64,000 nucleotides of DNA from an uncultured Candidatus Saccharibacteria bacterium (GTDB lineage Bacteria; Patescibacteriota; Saccharimonadia; Saccharimonadales; Saccharimonadaceae). The stretch lies in the NCBI GenBank assembly GCA_963718685.1, contig OY970356.1:497031-561030 (forward strand), written 5' to 3'. Under the pieces are notes generated by a model. That model was not told the origin of the DNA. It made no database searches and saw nothing but the letters and a program-made list of their open reading frames with translations. Below, one piece after another: positions 13,192 through 50,644 of the stretch (position 1 is its first letter; the number at the start of each line of letters is the position of its first letter). Both the position numbers and the translations under genes were made by a program.

Positions 13192-14299
13192 TTATTACTC
13201 CTGCCTTAATTATAGCTTTGTTTAACTCGATAGCTAATTCATTGCCCTTTTGCAACTTAGCCACGTTAACGCCGCTTACAACCTTGCCCTGGCTGCGCAC
13301 AATTCCGTAGCCGCGCTTTAAAACCTGTCTAGGGTCGACTTGGTTTAAACTACGACCCAAAGCCTGATAATCAGTCTGGAGCTGTTGCTGGCGGCGTCTT
13401 AAAGCTTCGTAACTACTTTGTAAACCCTCGCTGACTTCCCTCTGCTTAGAATCAAGCTGGTTTTTAGTTCTTTCAAGCATGCGTTTCAAAGTGTAATGAG
13501 CGCCTTCGATAATCTGGTTCTTGTCAGGAACTAAAATCTGAGCCGCGTTGCTAGGAGTACTGGCTCGGCTATCCGCTACCATATCAGCTAACGTAATGTC
13601 GGTTTCATGGCCGACTCCGACTAGCGTAGGTACCCGGCTGGCTGCGATTGCCCGAACCAAAGGTTCGTCGTTAAAAGCCGCCAAGTCATCGGCACTGCCG
13701 CCGCCGCGAACAACCACAATTACCTCAGGCGGTTCCGATGCTTCATTAAAATATTGCAAAGCCCTAATTATCTGAGGCGGCGCGCTATTACCCTGTACTA
13801 GCACATGCGCAACTTCAACTTTTAAACCGCCAAAACGTTGGTTTAAAATCTTGATAAAATCTGCAAAACCTGCCGCTTCGGTAGAGCTAATCACGCCTAC
13901 TTTAGAAGGCAAACTCGGAAGCGGCCTTTTACGCTCAAGGTCAAACAAGCCTTCTTTAGCTAGTTTAGCTTTTAACAGCTCAAAAGCCCGCCTTAAGCTG
14001 CCCTCGCCCATCAAGTCGATACGCTTTACAGTCAAGCTGAATTTGCCCCAAGCGGTAATTTTAGGCTGGGCAAAAACTTCGACTTTCATGCCATCTTCCA
14101 AAGGTGTGCGTAGCTGGTATTTCATCATGAAACAGCTAAGACTAGACTTATCATCTTTGATATCAAAAAATACATACTTATTTTGGCTGATTTTAAAATT
14201 ACTAACCTCGCCCACAACACTTAAGTCGGGATAGGCATAATCTAGGGTTTGATTAATTACTGCTACGCACTGGCTAACGCTTAATTGGACCGTTGTCAT
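13175..14299 (-). CDS. xseA: exodeoxyribonuclease VII large subunit
   Basis: N-terminal OB fold (VVGEVSNFKISQNKYVFFDIKD), catalytic region VVVRGGGSADDLAAFNDE. Confidence 0.85.
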   Translation of the reverse strand: MTTVQLSVSQCVAVINQTLDYAYPDLSVVGEVSNFKISQNKYVFFDIKDDKSSLSCFMMKYQLRTPLEDGMKVEVFAQPKITAWGKFSLTVKRIDLMGEGSLRRAFELLKAKLAKEGLFDLERKRPLPSLPSKVGVISSTEAAGFADFIKILNQRFGGLKVEVAHVLVQGNSAPPQIIRALQYFNEASEPPEVIVVVRGGGSADDLAAFNDEPLVRAIAASRVPTLVGVGHETDITLADMVADSRASTPSNAAQILVPDKNQIIEGAHYTLKRMLERTKNQLDSKQREVSEGLQSSYEALRRRQQQLQTDYQALGRSLNQVDPRQVLKRGYGIVRSQGKVVSGVNVAKLQKGNELAIELNKAIIKAGVINVSKK

Positions 14300-38759: not shown

Positions 38760-39296
38760 ATGGCTAACGACCTAGCCAAAGAGGCCGATGAGCTCCTGGA
38801 GTCTATCGGCGACGTTATAAACAAGCTGGAGATCCAAGAAAACCAGCTTAACGAACGCATCAAAAAAGTCAAAGGCGAGTTCGGCGACAAAATCGACGAG
38901 CTCACCAAGCGGCGCGACGACTTGGCCGGCCAGCTCGCCGGTCTGGCAAAACAGCACCGCAAAGAGCTGGTCGAGCCCGGCACTAAGATGATTTCGCTGC
39001 GTCACGGCCAAATCAGGTGGCGGCGGTCGCCACGGGCGCTTGAGGTGGAGGACCACGAGGCCATCATTATTGAGCGAATTCGTCGGCTTCGCGGTCTACG
39101 CACGTTCACTCGCGTAGGCAAACGCACGCTCGACAAAACCAAGCTCAAGGCAGCGCCCGGCTTCGTCACCAGGGTGAAAGGTCTCAAAATCACCCAAACC
39201 GAAGACCTGGTCATCGACCCGGCCAAAGTTCAAAGCGAGATCGTCCGCACGGGCGACCCGCTCAAATTCCCTGCCAGCCAAGAAGGAGAGGACTAG
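38760..39296 (+). CDS. Mu Gam-like host-nuclease-inhibitor (DNA-end-binding) family protein
   Basis: 178 aa. N-terminal coiled coil, then ISLRHGQIRWRRSP...LDKTKLKA, which resembles the Mu Gam family. GC-rich. Confidence 0.6.
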   Translation: MANDLAKEADELLESIGDVINKLEIQENQLNERIKKVKGEFGDKIDELTKRRDDLAGQLAGLAKQHRKELVEPGTKMISLRHGQIRWRRSPRALEVEDHEAIIIERIRRLRGLRTFTRVGKRTLDKTKLKAAPGFVTRVKGLKITQTEDLVIDPAKVQSEIVRTGDPLKFPASQEGED

Positions 39297-39335: not shown

Positions 39336-42300
39336 TTATGCTTGCTTTTTACTCCACTCTTCACCAAACAAACTAGCTTGTTCAAGCACTAAATCTGTAG
39401 CTACTTTCTCTTCATCTGGTGGATATCCATATTCGCGCAAAGCTCGCTTAACTTCTCGTCGTAACAATGCCTGCGCACTTGAGCGAAGCGTCCAATCAAC
39501 ACTAAGGTTTTTTCTAATTCTTTCAACTAAAATTCTAGCTAGATTTCTCAATTTTTCATCACCCATAACTTTACGTGCACTGCCATTCTGGACTAAGGCA
39601 TCGTAAAAAGCTATCTCATCCGATGACAGCCCTAGACTTTCAGCTTCCTTGTCCGAGTCTCGCATGTTTTTAGCAATTTTTATCAACTCTTCAATAACCT
39701 GCGCCGCTTCAATTGTATTGTTCTTATACTTCAACAAGGCTTTCTCGAGCATATCAGCAAAAGAGCGGGCCTTTACAGCATTTGTGTTAAATTTAGCCTT
39801 AATTTCATCGTTAAGAAGTTTTTGCAAGGCTTCTACGGCAAGATTCTTGTGTTCCATATTACGAACTTCAGCTAAAAACTCATCCGACAATATTGAAATG
39901 TTGGGCTTTTCAATCCCAGCAGCTTCAAAAATATCAACCACACCGGCAGGTGCTATTGCCTTATCTACAATTTGCCTAATCGCCAAGCCATAATCTTCAT
40001 CGGTTTTTCCTTTTTCTACCAGCTTAGCTAAACGTGCTTTTACGGCCTGAAAGAAAGCTAATTCTTCGCGTATTGCCAATGCGTCAGGATGAGGCACAGA
40101 CAAAGCAAAAGCCTTAGAAAGTTCCAGCACATGCTGCTTTAAACGCTCTTCGCCTTCTTCTTGTTTCAAGATAAGTTCTTGAGCATTTAAGATTATCTGT
40201 AGCTGCTCCGATGTCCCAGCTTTAAAGTATTTTTTATAGTCAAACCCGTGAAACAGGTCGCATACAATTTCATATTTTTGTTTCATCATAGCAACTGCTT
40301 CTTCTTGATCAAGAGCTGGCTTGCCCTTACCACCACTAAGTGTGTAATCGCTCAGCGCATTGCGTAACGCGCCAGCAATTCCTAAATAATCAACAACTAA
40401 GCTGCCTGGCTTATCTTTATAAACGCGGTTAATTCTAGCTATTGCCTGCATTAAGTTATGGCCTTTTATAGGTTTATCTAGGTACATCGTGTGTAAGCTA
40501 GGTACATCAAAACCTGTTAGCCACATATCACAAACAATCACTAATTTAAGAGGCGAGTCAGCTTTTTTCATATGTTCAGCCAGCTCTTTTCGTCTCTGCT
40601 TGTTACGAATATGTTCTTGCCAAGCCAGCTCGTCTGTAGCCGAACCAGACATGACTACTTTTAAAAATCCCTGTTTATCGTCTTTGCTATACCATTCCGG
40701 GCGGATTTCTACCAATGCATCGTGTAGCTCTACTGCAATTCGTCGGCTCATAGTTACAATCATGCCTTTTCCGTCCATCACACTCAGGCGGTTTTCAAAA
40801 TGCTCAACGATATCTTGGGCAATGCGTTTTATACGTTTTTCATTTCCGACTATAGCTTCCGCTTGCGCCCACTTGCCTTTTAGCTCTTCTTTTCGGGTCA
40901 ACTCTTCACCTTTAGTCAGCTCGTCAAAATCTTTATCAATCGTCTTTCGCATCTCTTCGTTAATATCAAGATCAATCAAACGCGACTCATAAAAAATCGG
41001 CACCGTAGATTTATCTTCTACTGCCTGCTCAATATCGTAAATATCTATATAATCACCAAAAACTGCTGGAGTGTTTTTATCTTCCGCTTCAATTGGCGTT
41101 CCGGTAAAGCCAATGAAGTTTGCATTAGGCAGCGCATCGCGAATGTGTTTAGCAAAGCCATCCATAAAGTTATATTGGCTACGGTGCGCTTCATCGGCCA
41201 TAACTATGACGTTGTTGCGATCACTTAGTAAAGGAAAGCTTTTGCCATCTTCTGGAAAGAATTTAGCGTTAGTCGTAAATATCACTCCACCAGATTTTAC
41301 TTTTAATAGCTCTTTTAAGTTTTCGCGACTCTCGGCTTGCTTTGGAGCCTGTCTTAGTAATTCTTTACAGCCGCTGAAAGTTCCAAACAGTTGGTCGTCT
41401 AAGTCATTCCTGTCTGTTATCACCACAATCGTTGGGTTATTAAACTGCTTCTTTTCGTCAAGCACTAATTTTCCAGCTAAGAATGCCATGCTAAGTGACT
41501 TGCCCGACCCTTGCGTATGCCAAACCACACCGATTTTATGGTCACCGTTCATAGCGTTAGTGGTAGCCGCCAAAGCCTTATTAACTGCCCAATATTGATG
41601 ATAACCAGCCAGTTTCTTTACTAATGCCTCGTCACTTTCGCCTTCTCGCTCAAAGACCACATAATTGCGCACAATATCTAACAATCTGGCCCTATCGCAC
41701 ATTCCCCGCAGCAGCACCTCCATCATTGGCACGCCAGAATGTTCTTTATCTCCATTTACAGTTTTCCAGGCATTAAACCTCTCATAATCCGCAGTTATTG
41801 TGCCGGCTTCGGCTTCTATTCCATCAGTTATTACCAGCAATTCATTAAAACGAAATAGCGTTGGCACTTCATCCATATATGTTTGCAGTTGGTTATAGGC
41901 TTTTTTAATTGTGGCCTTTTCGTCGCTTGGGTCTTTTATCTCAATCACACCTAGCGGCAAGCCATTTACAAAAAGTACAATATCCGGCCGGCGGTTATTT
42001 TCGCCCTGTATTACAGTTAGCTGATTAACGGCTATAAATTTATTGTTATACAGATTATCTTCATCAAATAGCTTAACTTTTTTGGTGCGTATTTCACCGT
42101 CTTTTGCACGATATTCTATATCTACACCGTTAACTAAAAGTTTGTGAAATTCGTGGTTATCAAGCAGCAAGTTTGGGGCGCTACTTTGCTTTATCTTTTT
42201 TACTGCTTCTTCTAGCTCTTCCGAGGAAAGTTCGTTGATTTTTGTAAGCGCAGAACGTAGCTTACTTTCTAAAATTACATCGCTATATTGCCGTCTAGTA

Positions 42301-42398
42301 TCCTCGCCATCAGGTCCAATATCTGGGCCATGCAAAACTTCCCACCTTAAATCAGCTAATATTTTTAGTGCTTCTTGCTCTACTTTATCCTCGGTCAT
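39336..42398 (-). CDS. hsdR: Type I restriction enzyme R subunit
   Basis: Nuclease core [20 protein letters not shown], helicase motifs [16 protein letters not shown] and TGTPI, 1020 aa. Confidence 0.95.
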
Positions 42399-43438
42399 TG
42401 CGCTAGCCTCATTCTAGCAGCAGTTCTTCTAATTTTTGCAATTCTAGGATCTTTGGTATCAGTATTAAATTCTCCCGCATTTTTCTTATCTAATAAAAAA
42501 TCCAGGGCCTTCTGATTATATTTTCTAAGTTCACTGTTTTTATAGGGTTTAAAAATATGCATATATTCATCTTTCTGCAATCCATAATAAATTGCTAAGG
42601 ACCTACCATTATTTGCCTTAGACGAGGAGTTTCCTTTAAATCCAAGCTTCTCCGCTAGTAGGGCGGCATTGTATTTAAATTCAATTTCCGGATCGATTTT
42701 CCTTTCTATAATTGTACCAGCGCCTGTTATATCTCCGATGATCCTTAAAGTTGGCGATCCGTCTTTTTCTTCAAATTGTCCTTCTTTTATGAATTTTATT
42801 TTTTTCAATAGTTCTTCATCTATCACAACGCGCCCACTATTTCCCGATAACTCTCCAGTATTAACATTTAAAACCGCTGCATTTTCAACTCCAACCTTTG
42901 CCATTCTTTCAAGTTGGGCCAGCCAAAGCTGTTTCTCTTTTTCACGTTTATCATCAATCATTTTTAATAACTGAGAAGAATTAATGCGTTCTGACCTTGC
43001 ATTATTCCTGAAATAAATATCACCATCTTTAAGGCTTTGTCCGCTTTTTGTACAAACTATAGGTTTTTGGTCATGCTCATAAATGTAAATCCATCCGATC
43101 TTTGTTCTCTTATTTAATTCTAAGATTTCCATTTCAAACAAGGGAATGCTGGAAAAGTAAGATTTTAATGATTCTGATATTATTTCTGGTGTAATCTTAG
43201 AGAAATTATTGGAACTTAATCCTATTATTTTATGAGGGCTATCTTGAACACCAAAAATTAATAAACCACCTTGGTTATTGGCAAACGCAACCATGGCTTT
43301 CATATAAGTTTCTTTATAATCGCCCCAGATGAAGCTCTGTTTAAAATCAAGCTTACTTGATTCTCTAGCTATAACGTGTCCTCTTTTATTAGTTTTGAGC
43401 CTAGTTTTAACGAAGTCTCTAATTGCTTCTAAATTCAT
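42395..43438 (-). CDS. Schlafen/AlbA_2-like domain protein embedded in the R-M operon
   Basis: [10 protein letters not shown] ... [18 protein letters not shown] ... [12 protein letters not shown] matches the AlbA_2 signature by eye. ~180-aa C-terminal region unassigned. ATGA overlap with hsdR. Confidence 0.65.
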
Positions 43439-44274
43439 TACTCATTCCTCAGTAACTGAAAAAGCATTATTGTGTAATGCAAGACAAACCCGGCTTCTTC
43501 ATGAGTGGGTGCTCGACCTGTACCAGTCTGGTGGTTTCCTCGTATTTTTGAAAAGTCTTTCATGATTTCAAGAAATTTGTCATTGTCATATAAAGTATCA
43601 GCCGGTAATGGATAGTCCTCAGGATTTGTTCGCATCTTTTGCAACAAAGTTCCGAGTTGGGTTCTGGTTTCATTTGGAAAATATTTATCCCTCAATAGAC
43701 CAGCCAGAGCATCCGTGCAGCGAGTCACTGTTTTCTCATCGTCAGGTTCCATACCGTAGTGAGACTCCCAAGCTTCCGCCACCAAGTCGTTTGCATTCAT
43801 TATTTCTTCTACCTGTTTTTTAACAATTGGAACAACTCTGTATATTAACTTCATTTTGGTTTGTTTCCATTTTACTGCTCTATCCTCTGTTACCACATTC
43901 ACCTTTTTAATTTCAACTTTATAAGCAGAGCTGGCTTCGCTTAGTATTTGTTCGAGCCTCTTACCTTCTTCTTCATCAGCGATTTTTTGTAATATATAAG
44001 ATAAAACATTACGAGACACTTTATTGCTAGAAAATATAGTGTCAAAAAAATCGGTCTCATTAGGAGGCAAAGAGCTTCTCAATTGCCTACTTAGCGGCAA
44101 AAGAAAAGTGTCAAAAAAATATCCTCTTCCTATCACACCTTGGGCCATGTCATGTTTCTTCAGGACATTGAAAATCCAGTTCTTAACACTTGGCAGGAGA
44201 TAGTTAGTAAAATCCTCAGTCAGTACAGACTTGTCAAACTCATATTCTTTGTCAAAAGGCTCGAAGTTGGTCAT
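43438..44274 (-). CDS. hypothetical helical protein, Abi_C/AbiJ-like layout (tentative)
   Basis: 278 aa. C-terminal TRCTDALAGLL...LGTLLQKM...FSKIRGNHQTGTGRAP...AGFVLHYTIMLFQLL resembles the Abi_C layout but lacks a clean Rx4-6H. Coupled at both ends. Confidence 0.4.
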   Translation of the reverse strand: MTNFEPFDKEYEFDKSVLTEDFTNYLLPSVKNWIFNVLKKHDMAQGVIGRGYFFDTFLLPLSRQLRSSLPPNETDFFDTIFSSNKVSRNVLSYILQKIADEEEGKRLEQILSEASSAYKVEIKKVNVVTEDRAVKWKQTKMKLIYRVVPIVKKQVEEIMNANDLVAEAWESHYGMEPDDEKTVTRCTDALAGLLRDKYFPNETRTQLGTLLQKMRTNPEDYPLPADTLYDNDKFLEIMKDFSKIRGNHQTGTGRAPTHEEAGFVLHYTIMLFQLLRNE

Positions 44275-45413
44275 ACTTTTATCTTTCCAGAGATTAGGCG
44301 TGGCAGTAGTGAATCTCGCAATTTAATCAAAGTTTGAATTTCCTGGTCATTATTGTGCATATGTACTCTTAGGGGCTTTACTTCATCGCCAAAATTATTA
44401 ATTTTGCTAGTCGGTGGTAACTTAACGCCAAGTTCTTCAACAGCAGTTCTGCTTAACTCCGTTTGCCCCGTTGTGCCGCTTCCCATGTCTTCAAATACCG
44501 GTTCTAGGTAGCGCATCATTTCGCCAAAGAAATATTTGTTAATGGTTGGTCTTACAACCGTAACATGTGAATCGAAAGTAGTATTTTCTGGCACTTCATC
44601 AACCTGGGCCACACGCCCTAACGTTCCTACGCCTGTAGAATTAATCAAAACGTCGCCATCGATCAACAATTTTTCACTACCGAATGTTTTACTCTGTCTC
44701 CGTGCGTTAATTAGGCTTAGCCTCTTAGCCCGTATACAACGCTGGTTTACCACCAAAGTTTCGCCTCGTTCGTCGTACTTTGGAGATATGCCGCGGCTAA
44801 TATAATCTGAGATTTTCTTGAGTGTTACAGTTTCCCAGCTTTTGGCTTCGGGATTGTCTATAAAATAATACTTAAAAAGGGCTTGGCCGATTTTTTCTAA
44901 AGTCTCGTTCATTTGTCGATTCAATTCAATCTTTTCGTCAATTGACTCTAGTATTTTTACTGCATTGATCTGGTTAGATTCACCTGGCAGATCTACCTTT
45001 AGTTCCTTAATACTCTTCAAGCTGATTGTTTTTTGCGTAGAACCCGTAGTCTTAAACTTTATTTGTCTTTTTCCCTCTGGCGATACCAACCAGTAGTAAA
45101 TATATCGACTGTTAACTTTCGGTAGAATAAAAACAGTATTTTGACCTAGGCAGAAATCTTCATCAAATCGTACATAAGAGGGTATACCTTCTGTACCAAC
45201 ACGAGAAAATACAATATCACCCTGTTTGGGTTTGTGCTTTTTGGAGAATTGTTTATACACTTCATGATCCACACGGAAACAATTTGAGGTATCTAAATAT
45301 CCTGACTTGATATCCGTTACCCGAACCATTGGAAACCCAGTCTCAGCATATTTTGGAGTCTGGTGCAGACTATCGACAATTTCCGCAACATCACCAAGCA
45401 AAACCGTCTTCAT
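44271..45413 (-). CDS. hsdS: Type I R-M specificity subunit
   Basis: Two target-recognition halves separated by helical spacers, 380 aa, between hsdM and hsdR. Confidence 0.85.
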   Translation of the reverse strand: MKTVLLGDVAEIVDSLHQTPKYAETGFPMVRVTDIKSGYLDTSNCFRVDHEVYKQFSKKHKPKQGDIVFSRVGTEGIPSYVRFDEDFCLGQNTVFILPKVNSRYIYYWLVSPEGKRQIKFKTTGSTQKTISLKSIKELKVDLPGESNQINAVKILESIDEKIELNRQMNETLEKIGQALFKYYFIDNPEAKSWETVTLKKISDYISRGISPKYDERGETLVVNQRCIRAKRLSLINARRQSKTFGSEKLLIDGDVLINSTGVGTLGRVAQVDEVPENTTFDSHVTVVRPTINKYFFGEMMRYLEPVFEDMGSGTTGQTELSRTAVEELGVKLPPTSKINNFGDEVKPLRVHMHNNDQEIQTLIKLRDSLLPRLISGKIKV

Positions 45414-45955
45414 TTTTTCTTATCCTTGCTTTGAGCACTATTGGGTTGACGTGATGATTTTGCACCCATAAGAAGTCCGAATTCTTTTGGTTTTATCGTT
45501 GTATCGTAATCATTAATTAAAGGTCGCATAAGTCTTATTGCTCCACTTCCTAGCCTACGATTTGATAGGCCAATATCTTTCCTCATTGCCCTGAACACAT
45601 TAGTCATAAGAACCATCGTGTGAAAACCGTCGCTGTTGCCCTTGTATGAGTTCTGTAGCATATCGGCATATGCGTTTATTACCTTCGGGGACGAATACAG
45701 AACTGCTTTCCGATGAAAATCTTTCATTTTTTTAACTATTTCTTTTTGCTGATTGGGCGTAACCTCGGTTTCTTGCTCTTGCAGATCGCTGAGGAACTTC
45801 AAAATAAAGTTTACATACTCTTGGTACATTTCGCGCTTAATTTGTGCGTTTTCTGAACTAAACTGAGCTTTTTTATCCAGAAAATACTTAATAAGATAAC
45901 CGATTGCGCCGCTAGATATAATCCCTATTAGGGTCAGCCAATTTTCTGTAGTCAT
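45410..45955 (-). CDS. single-pass membrane protein of unknown function embedded in the R-M operon
   Basis: WLTLIGIISSGAIGYLIKYF TM, then a helical domain and a basic tail. ATGA overlaps at both ends. Confidence 0.6.
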   Translation of the reverse strand: MTTENWLTLIGIISSGAIGYLIKYFLDKKAQFSSENAQIKREMYQEYVNFILKFLSDLQEQETEVTPNQQKEIVKKMKDFHRKAVLYSSPKVINAYADMLQNSYKGNSDGFHTMVLMTNVFRAMRKDIGLSNRRLGSGAIRLMRPLINDYDTTIKPKEFGLLMGAKSSRQPNSAQSKDKKK

Positions 45956-46437
45956 TTTTTTTGTTCCTTTGTTGGGAATTGGTTGAAATATGGTCCCCGT
46001 AAATCTGCGGCTCGTTCTAGCTCTGCATTTATTTTTATTTGCAATTCAGCATGTTTTTTAGCTTGCTCTTCAACGTCAAAAAAATCACCGGAGTATAAGA
46101 TACCCTTATCCGCTATATGTGTGCCGTGTGCAAAAATGTTGCGGATTTTAAGCCAATTACTGAACAGTGTTCTATTGAGCTTACCGCTATTCCCATGCAT
46201 TCGTTCGTATATTTTTGCTAAAATATTGATTTTTGTATCCAACGAGATTCCCCTATCATTCATTACGTCAAACATGAACGCCAAATATGTGGCTTGATAA
46301 TTTGCCTTTGGACATCGAGTATAGAACTCGGTTATGTAAGCGTTTATCATGCTCTCTATAGATGTCGCCTGAGCGATCACTCTTCCTATTAGTCCTAGCT
46401 CTAGAGTAAGCTTGTCTGTACAATTATCAGAACTCAT
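45952..46437 (-). CDS. small HEPN-domain protein (predicted RNase) embedded in the R-M operon
   Basis: 161 aa, all-helical. CGC AAC ATT TTT GCA CAC = RNIFAH (Rx4H) at 46126-46143, followed by G. Confidence 0.6.
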
Positions 46438-47920
46438 AACCGATCTTCTTTAAATTATCTTTAATTTGCTTTTCTAATTTGTCAGATTCTGCGAATTGTC
46501 CTTTTAACTCAGTTGTTAACTTTTGCATCTTTTCTTCAAACGCTTCGTCGTCTTCTTCTATTTCTTCAGCACCAACATAACGTCCAGGAATCAAGACATA
46601 ATCATGTTCTTTGATCTCGTCCAGGGTTGTTTCTTTGCAGAAACCGGCAACGTCTTCGTACTTATTATTCTGCTGCTTCCATTCGTGATAAATGCCGGCT
46701 ATTTTGGCAATGTCACCGTCGTTAAACTCACGATTACGCCGATTAACCATATGCCCTGTATTGCGCGCGTCTATAAATAAGGTTTTGCCACTGCGGTTTT
46801 TACGGTCGCGCGAAATAAACCACAGACACGCTGGGATTCCAGTGTTAAAGAATAGCTGGCTTGGCATGGTAACAATACAATCAACTAAATCTGCCTCTAT
46901 AATACTTTTACGAATCTCGCCCTCGCCGGAACTTTGCGAACTCATAGAGCCATTTGCCAAGACAAAGCCAGCCGTACCTGTTGGGCTAAGATGATGTATA
47001 AAATGCTGAACCCAAGCAAAGTTAGCATTGCCTTTTGGCGGAGTGCCAAACTTCCATCGCACATCATTTGCCAAAAGCTCACCGCTCCAGTCGCTGTCGT
47101 TAAATGGCGGATTGGCTAATACGAAGTCGGCTTTGAGGTCTTTTAGCTGGTCGTTATGGAGCGTGTCGCCATATTTGATATCTGCGTCTATGCCACGAAG
47201 GGCCATGTTCATGACAGCTAGCTTCCAGGTGGTTTGGTTACTTTCCTGACCGTAAATTGCAATATCCCCTAGTCGGCCGGAATGCTCTTCTATAAATTTT
47301 TCACTTTGAACGAACATTCCCCCACTGCCACAGCATGGGTCATAAATCCGGCCTTTATATGGCTCTAGCATCTCGACAAGCAAGCGAACGATGCTGCGTG
47401 GAGTATAGAACTGCCCGCCACGCTTGCCTTCTGCATCGGCAAACATGCCGATGAAGTATTCATAAATCCGGCCTAGTAAATCTTTTTCTTTATGGCCGCT
47501 GCCATTTAGCTGTATATTACTGAAAATATCAATTAGCTCACCTAAGCGGCGTTTATCTAGAGCTTCCCGCCCATAGTTTTTTGGCAAGACTCCTTTAAGC
47601 TTCGGGTTTTCTCGCTCAATGGCGTCCATGGCATCATCAATAATTGTGCCGATTTCTGGCTGCTTGGCGTTATCGCGCAAGTACCACCAGCGAGCTTCTT
47701 TAGGAACCCAAAATATATTTTCTGAAGCATATTCGTCTTTGTCTTCAGGGTCAACATATTCTTGGCTTTTAAGTTCTGCATATTTTTCTTCAAAGGCGTC
47801 AGATATGTATTTGAGGAAAATTAATCCAAGTACTACATGCTTATACTCTGCAGCGTCCATATTATTTCGCAGCTTATCAGCAGATTGCCAGAGTTTTTGC
47901 TGTATTTCTTGAATATCCAA
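46427..47920 (-). CDS. hsdM: Type I R-M N6-adenine DNA methyltransferase subunit
   Basis: Motif [12 protein letters not shown], motif IV LANPPFN, HsdM N-terminus [36 protein letters not shown] start with AAGAGG SD 6 nt upstream. Confidence 0.95.
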
Positions 47921-47967: not shown

Positions 47968-47976
47968 ATTATAGCA
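47968..47976 (-). promoter_or_regulatory. extended -10 (TGCTATAAT) of the R-M operon, inside a small palindrome
   Basis: Minus strand TGCTATAAT. Plus-strand GTGCT-CATTAT-AGCAC at 47962-47977. Leader hairpin TTAGAGC-TTCGT-GCTCTAA at 47939-47957. Confidence 0.4.
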
Positions 47977-48018
47977 CTTTTATCTCTGTTTTTAAACTAA
48001 ATTCAAAGGATATTACTT

Positions 48019-48092
48019 CGAGAAAGTATTAAAAATATTAAAACTAGCGCGCCAAGCAATCGGCGGAAATAGTTGGTGCCCCGCTAAAGAGC
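48019..48092. repeat. direct repeat copy A: degraded copy of the 3' end of the 49109-49408 gene
   Basis: About 85-90% identical by eye to 49125-49195, with two extra bases (agcggggcacc versus agcggcacc) that break the frame. Confidence 0.7.
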
Positions 48093-48226
48093 AGATTGAC
48101 ATAAGCGTTAACGGTATGATATGCTTAAAGTACAAATGAAACTGGTTCCGAACTGTCACCGTATGGTGTGCGTGCCTAGGACAACTAGGATAGGAGCCAG
48201 TTTCGACTTTACATAGAATAATCATT

Positions 48227-48862
48227 TTACTTAAACTCCCAGACATCTTCTATTCTTTTCTTGATAATCTTTATATAGCGTTTTGAATCTGTCTTATCCT
48301 TCTGGTAGGAACGATGTATGGATCCTGCTACTAAGTCTGCGAGTTGAATCAGGTTGTTTGTGTGTGAGTCAACAAATCTGACTTTGGCAATTTTTTTCGA
48401 CCTAGAATTGATCATGCGCCTGAAGTAAGTGACGGCGCTTTTTTTATACTCTCTACCTGAATGCCCGTCTAGCCGAACATCGGCTTTGTTTAGACTATCT
48501 GTTTTTGCCAAAACTTCTTTAATTGCATAGTTGTAAAAAGAATCTTGCTTGTTTCTTAACTCTTGGCTGCGAATTACAGATTTATTTATGCAAATAGCGC
48601 GCACCCTGAAGTTCTTTGAGCCGAGTCTTTTGAGAAGTTCTGCAGTGATATCTTTTTTAGTTTTATTAAACTTAAATTCTCTATTGTCCGACCACTTTAA
48701 CTCCCTGCGATATTTTTTCATTACCAAAGCCGTTTCTTCGGCGTCGAGATTGTCGTCAAAAATTACGCAAGCTATTACAAAGTGACTGCTAGAACCCTTA
48801 CCTAGCTTAAAACCTGGATCGCCAGAGTCATCTATAAAAACTAGTTGTTTTGTTTTCGCCAT
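48227..48862 (-). CDS. DUF3800-family protein
   Basis: N-terminal LVFIDDSGDPGF plus HFVIACVIF typical of DUF3800, 211 aa. Confidence 0.65.
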   Translation of the reverse strand: MAKTKQLVFIDDSGDPGFKLGKGSSSHFVIACVIFDDNLDAEETALVMKKYRRELKWSDNREFKFNKTKKDITAELLKRLGSKNFRVRAICINKSVIRSQELRNKQDSFYNYAIKEVLAKTDSLNKADVRLDGHSGREYKKSAVTYFRRMINSRSKKIAKVRFVDSHTNNLIQLADLVAGSIHRSYQKDKTDSKRYIKIIKKRIEDVWEFK

Positions 48863-49108: not shown

Positions 49109-49408
49109 TTATAAAATACCGCTCCGAGAAAGTATTATGAATATTAAAACTAACGCGCCAAGCGCTCGGCGAAAATAGTTGGTGCCGCTGAAAAGCTCTA
49201 GCCAAGCCCAAGTGGCAAGTGCGACAAAAGCAATGAGGTCAAACAGCAAGTGCGCTATGGGGATATGGAGTGGAACTTTTATAAGCACCGTGGCCACAAA
49301 CCAAACAATAATCGGCAAGTTGGGCCGCTGGAAAATGGCAAAATTGCCAGAGCTGTCTTTAAAGCATCTATCGAAAAAAGTGGGCTGGGGTTTACTGCTC
49401 TTGCGCAT
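49109..49408 (-). CDS. small three-TM membrane protein
   Basis: 99-aa ORF whose 3' end is direct repeat copy B. Confidence 0.55.
   Translation of the reverse strand: MRKSSKPQPTFFDRCFKDSSGNFAIFQRPNLPIIVWFVATVLIKVPLHIPIAHLLFDLIAFVALATWAWLELFSGTNYFRRALGALVLIFIILSRSGIL
49125..49195. repeat. direct repeat copy B (intact 3' end of the 99-aa gene)
   Basis: Encodes ...ELFSGTNYFRRALGALVLIFIILSRS. Matches 48019-48092. Confidence 0.7.
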
Positions 49409-49435: not shown

Positions 49436-50584
49436 TTAACTTTCTTCCTCACTAAATAGTTCAACGTAATCACGATAAATGTATTTTTGACCGTATGTAT
49501 CAGTGTCTTTAGTAGGAAAAAGTATTCCCATACCTTTGAGTCTTTCGATAACCCTATAAGCACCTGGGCGAGTATAGCCTGTCCATTTCACAATATCAGC
49601 AATACCTACCGTTGGTAAGCGATAAAGATTGCGAAGAACCTCAAGTGTTGTGGGGGCTGAAGCTCGACCGAGTTTTTGGACTTTACGCATATCGCGTTCG
49701 CGAACTTCGGTTATTTTCTGACATGTGACAATAGCTGACTGTGCTGTTTCTATAATCCCATCCATAAAGAAATCGAGCCATTCGCTGATACGCCCTTCTT
49801 CTGAATGATAGCCATTAAGTCTATCGTAGTAGGTGTCTTGATGTTTTTTAAAATATGACGACAAATAAAGCACCGGCATTTCTAATAGTTTTTCATGCCA
49901 CAGAAACATAGTAACCAATATGCGTCCAGTGCGGCCATTGCCGTCAGCAAATGGATGGATTGTTTCAAATTGAGCATGTAAAAGACCAGCCTTTATAAGT
50001 GGCAGGTAGTCATCATCGGCATGAATAAACTTTTCAAGATTACTAAGAGCGTCTTTCATATCGTGAACCGGAGGCGGCACAAACCTAGCATTGTCGGGAC
50101 GTGTACCACCAATCCAATTTTGGCTAGTACGAAACTCGCCTGGAAATGGGTTGTGTGTAGTACGAGCGCCTGTCATTAGTTTTTGATGTAGTTCTCGTAT
50201 AAAACGAAGTGAAAATGGAAATTCTTTTGCTCGCTTAAGTCCATAATTCAATGCATCAATGTAATGTAAAATGTCATCAACATCAGCTGGAAGATCTGTG
50301 CTACGTTCAACATTTACCGCCTCAATAGCATCCATCATCGTTGCCTTTGTCCCTTCAATCTGGCTTGACGACGATGCATCTTTGCGGACAAACATTTCAA
50401 GAAAATAATCCTTATCTGGCAAAAGTTCAGTTATACCGTCTAGTTTTCCGATAAGCCGCACTGCTTCAGTATGTTTTTGCGACAAGGAACGATTAGTCAC
50501 AATTCCCTCAACTGGTGGAAACACACTAGGAACAAAGGCCTTAAAGCCTGTAGGTTGTTGAATATATTTTCCTATAATACTCAT
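49436..50584 (-). CDS. Fic-family protein (class II, N-terminal inhibitory helix) with C-terminal wHTH
   Basis: Fic motif HPFADGNGRTGR, inhibitory motif SSQIEG ((S/T)xxxE(G/N)). The ATG at 50584 (MSIIGKY) is preferred over the track start. Confidence 0.85.
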   Translation of the reverse strand: MSIIGKYIQQPTGFKAFVPSVFPPVEGIVTNRSLSQKHTEAVRLIGKLDGITELLPDKDYFLEMFVRKDASSSSQIEGTKATMMDAIEAVNVERSTDLPADVDDILHYIDALNYGLKRAKEFPFSLRFIRELHQKLMTGARTTHNPFPGEFRTSQNWIGGTRPDNARFVPPPVHDMKDALSNLEKFIHADDDYLPLIKAGLLHAQFETIHPFADGNGRTGRILVTMFLWHEKLLEMPVLYLSSYFKKHQDTYYDRLNGYHSEEGRISEWLDFFMDGIIETAQSAIVTCQKITEVRERDMRKVQKLGRASAPTTLEVLRNLYRLPTVGIADIVKWTGYTRPGAYRVIERLKGMGILFPTKDTDTYGQKYIYRDYVELFSEEES

Positions 50585-50591
50585 AGCAATT

Positions 50592-50620
50592 TGTTTACAT
50601 CTTTGGTTCCAATGTAAACA
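50592..50620. repeat. perfect 9-bp inverted repeat in the Fic leader
   Basis: TGTTTACAT (50592-50600) and ATGTAAACA (50612-50620). A third half-site ATGTAAAC lies at 50654-50661. Confidence 0.7.
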
Positions 50621-50644
50621 GAATAGCACATTTAGTTTATATCT

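Follow-up and report, generated by a model that had tools for sequence, protein, structure and literature searches.

A Type I restriction-modification operon with four embedded candidate defence genes in an uncultured Saccharibacterium

The 64,000-nucleotide (nt) stretch of DNA analysed here, which we call the window, comes from an uncultured Candidatus Saccharibacteria bacterium (assembly GCA_963718685.1, contig OY970356.1, forward-strand positions 497,031 to 561,030). On its minus strand it carries an intact, functional-looking Type I restriction-modification (R-M) operon, the HsdR of which has a predicted T1RH-like C-terminal domain. Four further genes, named here p161, p181, p278 and p347, are embedded in the operon, two in the slot between hsdM and hsdS and two in the slot between hsdS and hsdR. 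As far as the sequences of related operons tell, the inter-subunit gaps of this R-M clade are sites at which accessory defence genes are swapped, and we consider it fairly probable that the operon is active and co-expresses four autonomous passenger defence candidates. An initial annotation, made from the letters and a list of open reading frames (ORFs), had placed seven minus-strand genes here, and a mechanical ORF list reproduced them at the same coordinates. In window positions, and in the order of transcription, they and the two flanking signals are:

47968-47996, minus: promoter-like site upstream of hsdM, TTTAAA-17-TATAAT with a TG extended -10, 10/12 matches
46427-47920, minus: hsdM, 497 amino acids (aa), TTG start with AGAGG 7 nt upstream
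45952-46437, minus: p161, embedded gene 1 (hsdM-hsdS slot), 161 aa, probable HEPN-like protein
45410-45955, minus: p181, embedded gene 2 (hsdM-hsdS slot), 181 aa, membrane-anchored, distantly AbiN-like
44271-45413, minus: hsdS, 380 aa, two target-recognition domains
43438-44274, minus: p278, embedded gene 3 (hsdS-hsdR slot), 278 aa, orphan
42395-43438, minus: p347, embedded gene 4 (hsdS-hsdR slot), 347 aa, predicted prokaryotic Schlafen (pSlfn) nuclease
39336-42398, minus: hsdR, 1020 aa
39300-39329, minus: intrinsic-terminator-like hairpin 6 nt past the hsdR stop, 11-pair stem with 8 G-C pairs, 8-nt loop, then TTTCT

Restriction-modification core and expression signals

The three subunits contain the domains expected of a Type I enzyme. 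HsdM consists of the N6-adenine methyltransferase and its N-terminal domain (Pfam N6_Mtase, E-value 3.2e-114; HsdM_N, 5.2e-28; PADLOC MTase_I, 1.9e-221), and it is 63-79% identical to the hsdM products of 80 or more loci fetched from other genomes, the alignments with Saccharibacteria beginning at residue 1. HsdS has its two recognition domains, with Pfam Methylase_S matched at 3.3e-22 in two stretches and PADLOC Specificity_I models spanning residues 1-380, that is, the full length. In HsdR we found the PD-(D/E)xK nuclease, the superfamily 2 (SF2) motor and the C-terminal assembly domain (HSDR_N, 1.1e-48; SWI2_SNF2, 2.1e-79; T1R_D3-like, 9.5e-20; T1RH-like_C, 3.8e-124; ResIII also above threshold), together with a PADLOC REase_I match of 1116 bits and, in the translation, the motifs PD...EIK, GSGKS and DEAH.

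The genes are tightly coupled. A script check confirmed that every junction overlaps, as first annotated: four by the 4 nt of an ATGA (42395-42398, 44271-44274, 45410-45413 and 45952-45955), p278 and p347 by 1 nt within a TAATG (43436-43440), and hsdM and p161 by 11 nt (46427-46437). Overlaps thus occur at six of six junctions in the operon versus 10 of 51 same-strand neighbour pairs elsewhere in the window, the latter counted from a crude ORF-based gene calling over its whole length, so that coupling in the operon is denser than the genome baseline. ORFs, Pfam domains and junctions agree that the Type I R-M operon is complete and that the genes embedded in it are tightly coupled, and the hairpin after hsdR, with its 11 pairs, was also found as described.

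The promoter is a less simple matter. The site upstream of hsdM is real and among the best-scoring matches between 38.5 and 51 kb, whereas its first description as the one promoter-like site was too strong, since several further minus-strand matches lie inside the operon. An example is the sequence TTGACA-16-TAAAGT at 44018-44045 (minus, 10/12 matches), within the 5' part of p278, which, if functional, would allow p347 and hsdR to be transcribed separately from hsdM. Over the region as a whole, such matches are about as frequent as chance predicts (31 observed versus 26.5 expected). With such matches at chance level and some of them inside the operon, a single transcript across the seven genes is likely rather than established, and internal promoters may operate alongside that of hsdM.

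The embedded genes

The labels first given to the four inserts fared differently: Schlafen/AlbA_2-like was confirmed, the transmembrane label was supported, HEPN is probable, and Abi_C-like found no support. The PADLOC check proposed in the initial annotation gave, beyond Type I R-M, a match for p347 (model PDC-S50) and a weak one for p181 (AbiN); p161 and p278 gave no match.

By its domain match and motif, p347 is confirmed as a predicted nuclease of the prokaryotic Schlafen fold with an intact catalytic motif. It matches Pfam SLFN_AlbA_2 (PF04326) over residues 26-152 with an E-value of 1.3e-19 and 71.3 bits against a cut-off of 25.3, and PDC-S50 with 2.1e-12; among PDB sequences it matches Slfn13 (deposited as 'Schlafen 8') and SLFN14. 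In an alignment with the chain of PDB entry 5yd0, residues E26, D31 and D66 fall opposite its E218, E223 and D261 (chain numbering), which we take to be E205, E210 and D248 of rat Slfn13, assuming a construct offset of 13. The catalytic motif accordingly reads E26-x4-D31-x-K33 plus D66, and over 36 homologues E26, K33 and an E or D at position 31 are each present in all 36, and D66 in 31. Ex4(E/D)xK is the published motif of prokaryotic Schlafens, 69.6% of which are located near defence genes (Nat Microbiol 2026, PMC13056530). No annotated domain was found in the C-terminal ~190 residues, Pfam giving none over residues ~190-347, and residues 221-320 give a weak match to PADLOC PDC-S19 (4e-4). 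Distant homologues have only the N-terminal 60-70% of p347 in common, which is consistent with a variable C-terminal module. As for genomic context, relatives of p347 stand alone in the hsdS-hsdR slot of one fetched locus (L011; fetched loci are referred to by L numbers), in a GmrSD/RelA_SpoT/BsuBI island (L012) and in another context without hsd genes.

The small protein p161 has no match of its own in Pfam or PADLOC, and its family is tiny, with 17 clusters among 5.8 billion proteins. The sequence R99-N100-x2-A103-H104-G105 (RNIFAHG in p161, R99-x4-H104, of the Rx4-6H type) is invariant in all 17 members. Eleven of them give a sub-threshold match to Pfam HEPN_RiboL-PSP (best E-value 3.6e-4), and four match HEPN_Apea below the gathering score. 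When ten members were scanned singly, eight matched HEPN_RiboL-PSP with 15-18 bits against a cut-off of 28.4, in each case over residues ~60-110, motif included. AlphaFold2 (AF2) models the protein as a bundle of helices plus a small hairpin (mean predicted local distance difference test score, pLDDT, 84; predicted template modelling score, pTM, 0.77). Structural confirmation of p161 as a HEPN protein failed: a Foldseek search of the model against the PDB returned nothing significant (best E-value 0.77, none below 0.7), the sacsin HEPN domain 3o10_D appeared only at rank 24 of the list (TM-scores 0.36/0.42), and the PDB profile search was empty. The HEPN label given to this protein thus stands on the invariant RNxxAHG and the sub-threshold HEPN matches, and the structure search did not add to it; we regard p161 as a probable small HEPN protein. 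In five of seven distinct contexts (the window, L007, L008, L099 and L100) p161 occupies the hsdM-hsdS slot, in the four related operons with neighbours that differ each time (KAP NTPase, SoFic, unknowns), and in L009/10 and L103 it is not part of an hsd operon. AbiU2-type HEPN genes were seen in neighbouring slots of the related operons L099 and L100.

In p181 a hydrophobic helix at residues ~8-26 supports its labelling as a transmembrane protein. In distant relatives the hydrophobic segments at the N-terminus are stronger and apparently two in number, and these relatives have the motif FRAMRKDIGLSN in common. PADLOC AbiN was matched by p181 (4e-5) and by three relatives (6.5e-8, 1e-5 and 8e-4), all colinear and covering profile positions ~50-148 of 165; these are weak matches (17-30 bits) in four of the seven family members scanned, namely p181 itself and six relatives, the three more distant of which gave no AbiN match. 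We conclude that p181 is a distantly AbiN-like protein with a supported N-terminal membrane anchor as predicted from sequence, and since the mechanism of AbiN is unknown, the resemblance predicts little. All three close members of the family with readable context (the window, L007 and L093) are in the hsdM-hsdS slot; p181 adjoins p161 in L007, in the reverse of the order in the window, and stands without it in L093. A phage origin was considered for p181 and rejected, as tblastn found no match in 50,697 phage records.

The remaining insert, p278, had been labelled Abi_C-like. No match to it was found in Pfam, PADLOC, NCBIfam or PHROGs, and neither its 35 close homologues nor 96 of 237 distant representative clusters share a recurring Pfam family, Abi_C (PF14355) included; a single one of the 96 matched PF05168 (HEPN) at 0.0015, which we treat as noise. 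The AF2 model (pLDDT 76) has no Foldseek match in the PDB or BFVD, and PDB sequence and profile searches were also empty. An hhalign comparison with the p161 family gave a probability of 0.2%, that is, no similarity. The close family has R245-x2-H248 and R254-x3-H258, and the wider family keeps only H248 in a D-R-H-G context. With no profile, structure or hhalign signal and a motif of Rx2H, not Rx4-6H, p278 was rejected both as an Abi_C and as a HEPN protein. Homologues of p278 are located in another hsdS-hsdR slot with different partners (L001), next to Dcm, S-adenosylmethionine (SAM) synthetase and KAP NTPase genes (L002-L004), and next to DUF4145 and Shedu SduA_C (L005/L006), while tblastn returned only hypothetical proteins on Streptomyces linear plasmids.

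Cargo and scaffold in related operons

We scanned a genome collection with HsdM and took the best 80 of at least 584 hsdM relatives as species-representative loci (63-77% identity). The closest matches are Saccharibacteria metagenome-assembled genomes, followed by other members of the candidate phyla radiation (CPR), DPANN archaea and diverse phyla. This type of hsdM/hsdR (L013-L092) was seen in Saccharibacteria, other CPR, DPANN and methanogenic archaea, Myxococcota, Acidobacteriota, Nitrospirota and others. Such a taxonomic spread at 63-77% HsdM identity suggests wide horizontal transfer of the hsd scaffold.

Among the fetched loci, 59 have hsdM, hsdS and hsdR in this order, and the 55 of them fetched through hsdM alone served for counting slots. 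The hsdS-hsdR gap exceeds 300 nt in 50 of the 55 and the hsdM-hsdS gap in 33; both do so in 30 and neither in two, which leaves 53 loci with cargo, often unannotated. By Pfam the cargo includes SLFN_AlbA_2 (4+4), Fic (3+3), RhuM (2+4), AAA_21/AAA_15 (8/7 members), DUF3800 (4) and DUF3644 (4), and further Abi_2, KAP NTPase, TIR, SduA_C, PIN_12, NYN, SIR2, GmrSD_N, nucleotidyltransferases, DUF1016/YhcG and OLD-TOPRIM. From the slot counts and this mixed repertoire, it appears typical of the R-M clade to have both slots filled, with cargo shuffled on a conserved scaffold. Indeed, L001, L007, L008 and L011 carry different cargo despite hsdM products 72-79% and hsdR products 61-70% identical to those of the window. 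An all-against-all blastp of the unannotated cargo of L007, L093, L099 and L100 gave no cross-matches, and Pfam named only RelA_SpoT among it. In L100, hsdR appears split into a 110-aa HSDR_N fragment at 13323-13655 and a remainder from 13706; it may be frameshifted or inactivated in an operon that still has its cargo.

The neighbourhood check suggested in the initial annotation, namely whether the four inserts recur together in the same order, gave a negative answer: by tblastn of the four, no other fetched locus joins inserts from both slots, and we rejected a conserved four-gene system. An obligate pair of p161 and p181 was likewise rejected, as the two occur together only in the window and in L007, in opposite orders. 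As to linkage with hsd genes, p161 is embedded in five of seven contexts and p181 in three of three close ones; members of the p161, p278 and p347 families were also seen away from hsd operons, p181 being the exception.

Interpretation of the operon

From the gene structure, the domain and motif identities and the variability of the slots, we infer the following picture of activities, triggers and transcription. All seven genes would probably be transcribed from the hsdM promoter with coupled translation, so that expression of the restriction enzyme would bring with it that of the passengers, as added layers of defence. The R-M complex would cut unmethylated incoming DNA. Most likely p347 is a metal-dependent tRNA nuclease, which would stay inactive until a phage product is sensed by its own C-terminal domain and would then halt translation. 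As a second suicide or dormancy effector, p161 would probably act as a small HEPN RNase, p181 would be a membrane-anchored AbiN-like abortive-infection protein of unspecified chemistry, and p278 a defence-island protein of unspecified activity.

Several observations weigh against this picture. The fidelity of p161 to its slot (5/7) and that of p181 (3/3 close) could mean a functional tie to the R-M enzyme and not simple co-inheritance, and co-regulation alone would not require translational coupling as tight as that seen at all junctions. The call of p161 as HEPN comes from one motif and sub-threshold profile matches, with a structure search that was not significant, and p278 gives no functional clue at all. 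Finally, the slot survey used a crude one-strand ORF calling on a biased sample, the top 80 hsdM relatives. We leave a small chance to a more specific arrangement, in which p161 would be a minimal, ATPase-less HEPN RNase functionally dependent on the Type I R-M complex and adapted to the hsdM-hsdS slot that this clade has in CPR bacteria, a stripped-down analogue of PrrC, possibly acting with p181; separately or additionally, p278 would be the first of an anti-phage family not recognised before, and its fold would be new.

In PrrC an ABC-ATPase is joined to a HEPN domain, and the protein is kept silent by physical contact with EcoprrI. In a guard of this style, one or more of the embedded RNases (p161, p347) would be bound and held inactive by HsdMSR until a phage anti-restriction protein disables the R-M enzyme and so releases them, whereupon RNA cleavage would abort the infection. 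The initial annotation leaned this way, and besides the PrrC/EcoprrI precedent it can draw on Anantharaman et al. (2013, PMC3710099), who linked at least 16 HEPN clades to R-M and proposed for them a PrrC-like multi-layer logic, including combinations of Fic/DOC, HEPN and R-M; the guard is therefore a published hypothesis, which this locus does not test. The slot fidelity of p161 and p181 also speaks for it, and translational coupling at every junction would favour co-assembly. Nevertheless, the ABC-ATPase regulatory domain by which PrrC and RloC are defined is missing from all four inserts, relatives of p161, p278 and p347 exist without hsd genes nearby, and slot content is freely exchanged among closely related hsd scaffolds. 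Moreover, the one single-gene bacterial Schlafen characterised so far responds to a phage protein directly and does not act via R-M (PMC13056530), and Payne et al. (2024, bioRxiv 10.1101/2024.01.29.577857) single out PrrC as unusual, since nearly all of its occurrences are inside Type I R-M operons. We consider the guard unlikely and do not favour it; it is possible chiefly for p161, owing to its slot fidelity.

Less probable still is that p161 and p181, and possibly p278 and p347, form cassettes of a toxin-antitoxin kind, which would stabilise or regulate a mobile R-M island and not sense phage. HEPN proteins are frequent toxins of such systems (PMC3710099), p161 and p181 are small, adjacent and overlapping and meet again in L007, and the island is of low GC and looks mobile. 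However, p161 is found without p181 in L008, L099, L100, L103 and L009/10 and p181 without p161 in L093, their order is reversed in L007, p278 and p347 are together in no other fetched locus, and the Pfam scan revealed no antitoxin domain of the MNT or helix-turn-helix (HTH) type. We find it just as improbable that some of the inserts, p278 and p181 above all, are hitch-hiking or decaying genes without a defence role in recombination-prone gaps: p278 has no recognisable domain or fold and, for over half of all embedded genes, a clear function is lacking (Payne et al., 10.1101/2024.01.29.577857), but all four ORFs are intact, with precise overlaps and full-length homologues of 45-77% identity in many metagenomes, which argues for purifying selection, and relatives of p278 recur beside defence genes.

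The surrounding defence island

The operon sits in a low-GC defence island, with a GC content of 0.34-0.40 over the cargo versus 0.45-0.52 in the flanks. Upstream of it are a SoFic-like Fic gene (49436-50629, minus; PADLOC SoFic, 2.5e-109) and a DUF3800 gene (48227-48862, minus; Pfam 1.2e-17, PADLOC PDC-M04A 7.2e-14). Genes for Fic and DUF3800 also occur in related loci, either within the hsd slots (L014 and L100 are examples) or immediately upstream of hsdM (L011). Just beyond the 3' end of the DUF3800 gene, on the opposite strand, we identified a DUF3800-IX RNA (RF02968; 48139-48207, plus) by a full-length Rfam match (65.8 bits, gathering score 36.8, E-value 3.7e-12), with a plus-strand promoter-like TTGACA-18-TATGCT with TG right upstream of it (48096-48125). 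Eleven unrelated RNA motifs have been tied to DUF3800 genes, in either orientation and with unknown function (Weinberg et al., 2017, PMC5737381). The DUF3800 gene and the RNA motif are bracketed by a 74-nt direct repeat, 85% identical (48016-48089 and 49122-49195), one copy of which is the 3' end of a 99-aa membrane-protein ORF (49109-49408) and the other of which lies just upstream of the hsdM promoter. The repeat resembles a scar left when an inserted cassette duplicated the 3' end of its neighbour together with the neighbour's small hairpin. At the other end, a Mu Gam-like gene (38760-39296, plus; Pfam Phage_Mu_Gam, 8e-20) is convergent with hsdR and stops a few bases from the terminator hairpin; such a phage-type inhibitor of host nucleases beside restriction genes may be a prophage remnant or the island boundary. 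No tRNA gene is present in the window to mark an integration site.

Comparison with known systems

With PrrC and EcoprrI the operon has in common an RNase gene, here a predicted one, inside a Type I R-M operon and the plausible two-layer defence that this gives. The differences are that no ATPase domain was found in any of the four inserts by Pfam or PADLOC, unlike in PrrC and RloC, and that near-exclusive embedding in R-M does not apply, p278 and p347 being often outside hsd operons and p161 embedded in five of seven contexts. To the small HEPN families linked to R-M (RiboL-PSP-HEPN, Apea-like HEPN and AbiU2; PMC3710099), p161 is alike in its Rx4-6H motif, modelled helical bundle and embedded position, and it differs from them in falling under every Pfam HEPN gathering threshold, in its family of only 17 clusters and in having no significant HEPN structure match. 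As for AbiN of Lactococcus lactis, p181 is of similar size (181 aa versus a profile of 165 positions) and gives colinear PADLOC matches in four of seven family members, whereas the similarity is weak at 17-30 bits and p181 has no homologue in phage records.

A further comparison is that of p347 with the bacterial Schlafens. These were shown in 2026 to be phage-triggered tRNases that defend against phage, and RorSlfn5 is an Mn2+-dependent tRNase, triggered directly by a T5 protein via its C-terminal domain, with E15A/D20A as the dead mutant (PMC13056530). An N-terminal Slfn/AlbA_2 domain is common to both, E-x4-D-x-K in p347 has the same E-x4-D spacing as E15/D20 of RorSlfn5, and both are single genes of a ~40-kDa product with a C-terminal domain that is non-catalytic, in p347 by prediction, and a location in a defence island. 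In p347, unlike in RorSlfn5, the C-terminal ~190 residues lack an annotated domain, the gene is embedded in an R-M operon and translationally coupled, and activity and trigger are predictions only.

The layout itself, with defence genes between hsd subunits, is already documented, and ours is an ordinary but tidy example. The "guilt-by-embedding" study of Payne et al. provides a catalogue of genes found inside BREX, DISARM and Type I R-M systems, with 96.7% co-orientation, and the phage-defence-candidate (PDC) models of PADLOC were derived from it (10.1101/2024.01.29.577857). Experimentally validated embedded systems include TgvAB in the Type I R-M operon of Vibrio cholerae VPI-2 (PMC11411939) and DarTG2 in that of enteropathogenic Escherichia coli (EPEC; PMC12255303), and work on embedded systems has described the gap between hsdS and hsdR as a probable hotspot of recombination. 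As in these systems and the rlo genes of Campylobacter, accessory defence genes stand here between the hsd genes and on the same strand, and the match of p347 to PDC-S50 is to a model from that very catalogue. What differs is that both slots hold two genes each, that PADLOC has no matching model for p161 or p278 and gives only a weak match, AbiN, for p181, and that the host belongs to the CPR, ultra-small bacteria little represented in RefSeq-based surveys. Conceptually the layout adds nothing, as embedding, the linkage of HEPN to R-M and bacterial Schlafen defence have all been published. The locus nonetheless supplies three rare candidates (p161, p181 and p278) for testing by "guilt-by-embedding", and they come from Saccharibacteria and other CPR/DPANN lineages, ultra-small bacteria and archaea that such surveys cover poorly. 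The R-M clade, which extends across bacteria and archaea with hsdM products at 63-77% identity, offers a conserved scaffold that could be mined systematically for new defence genes.

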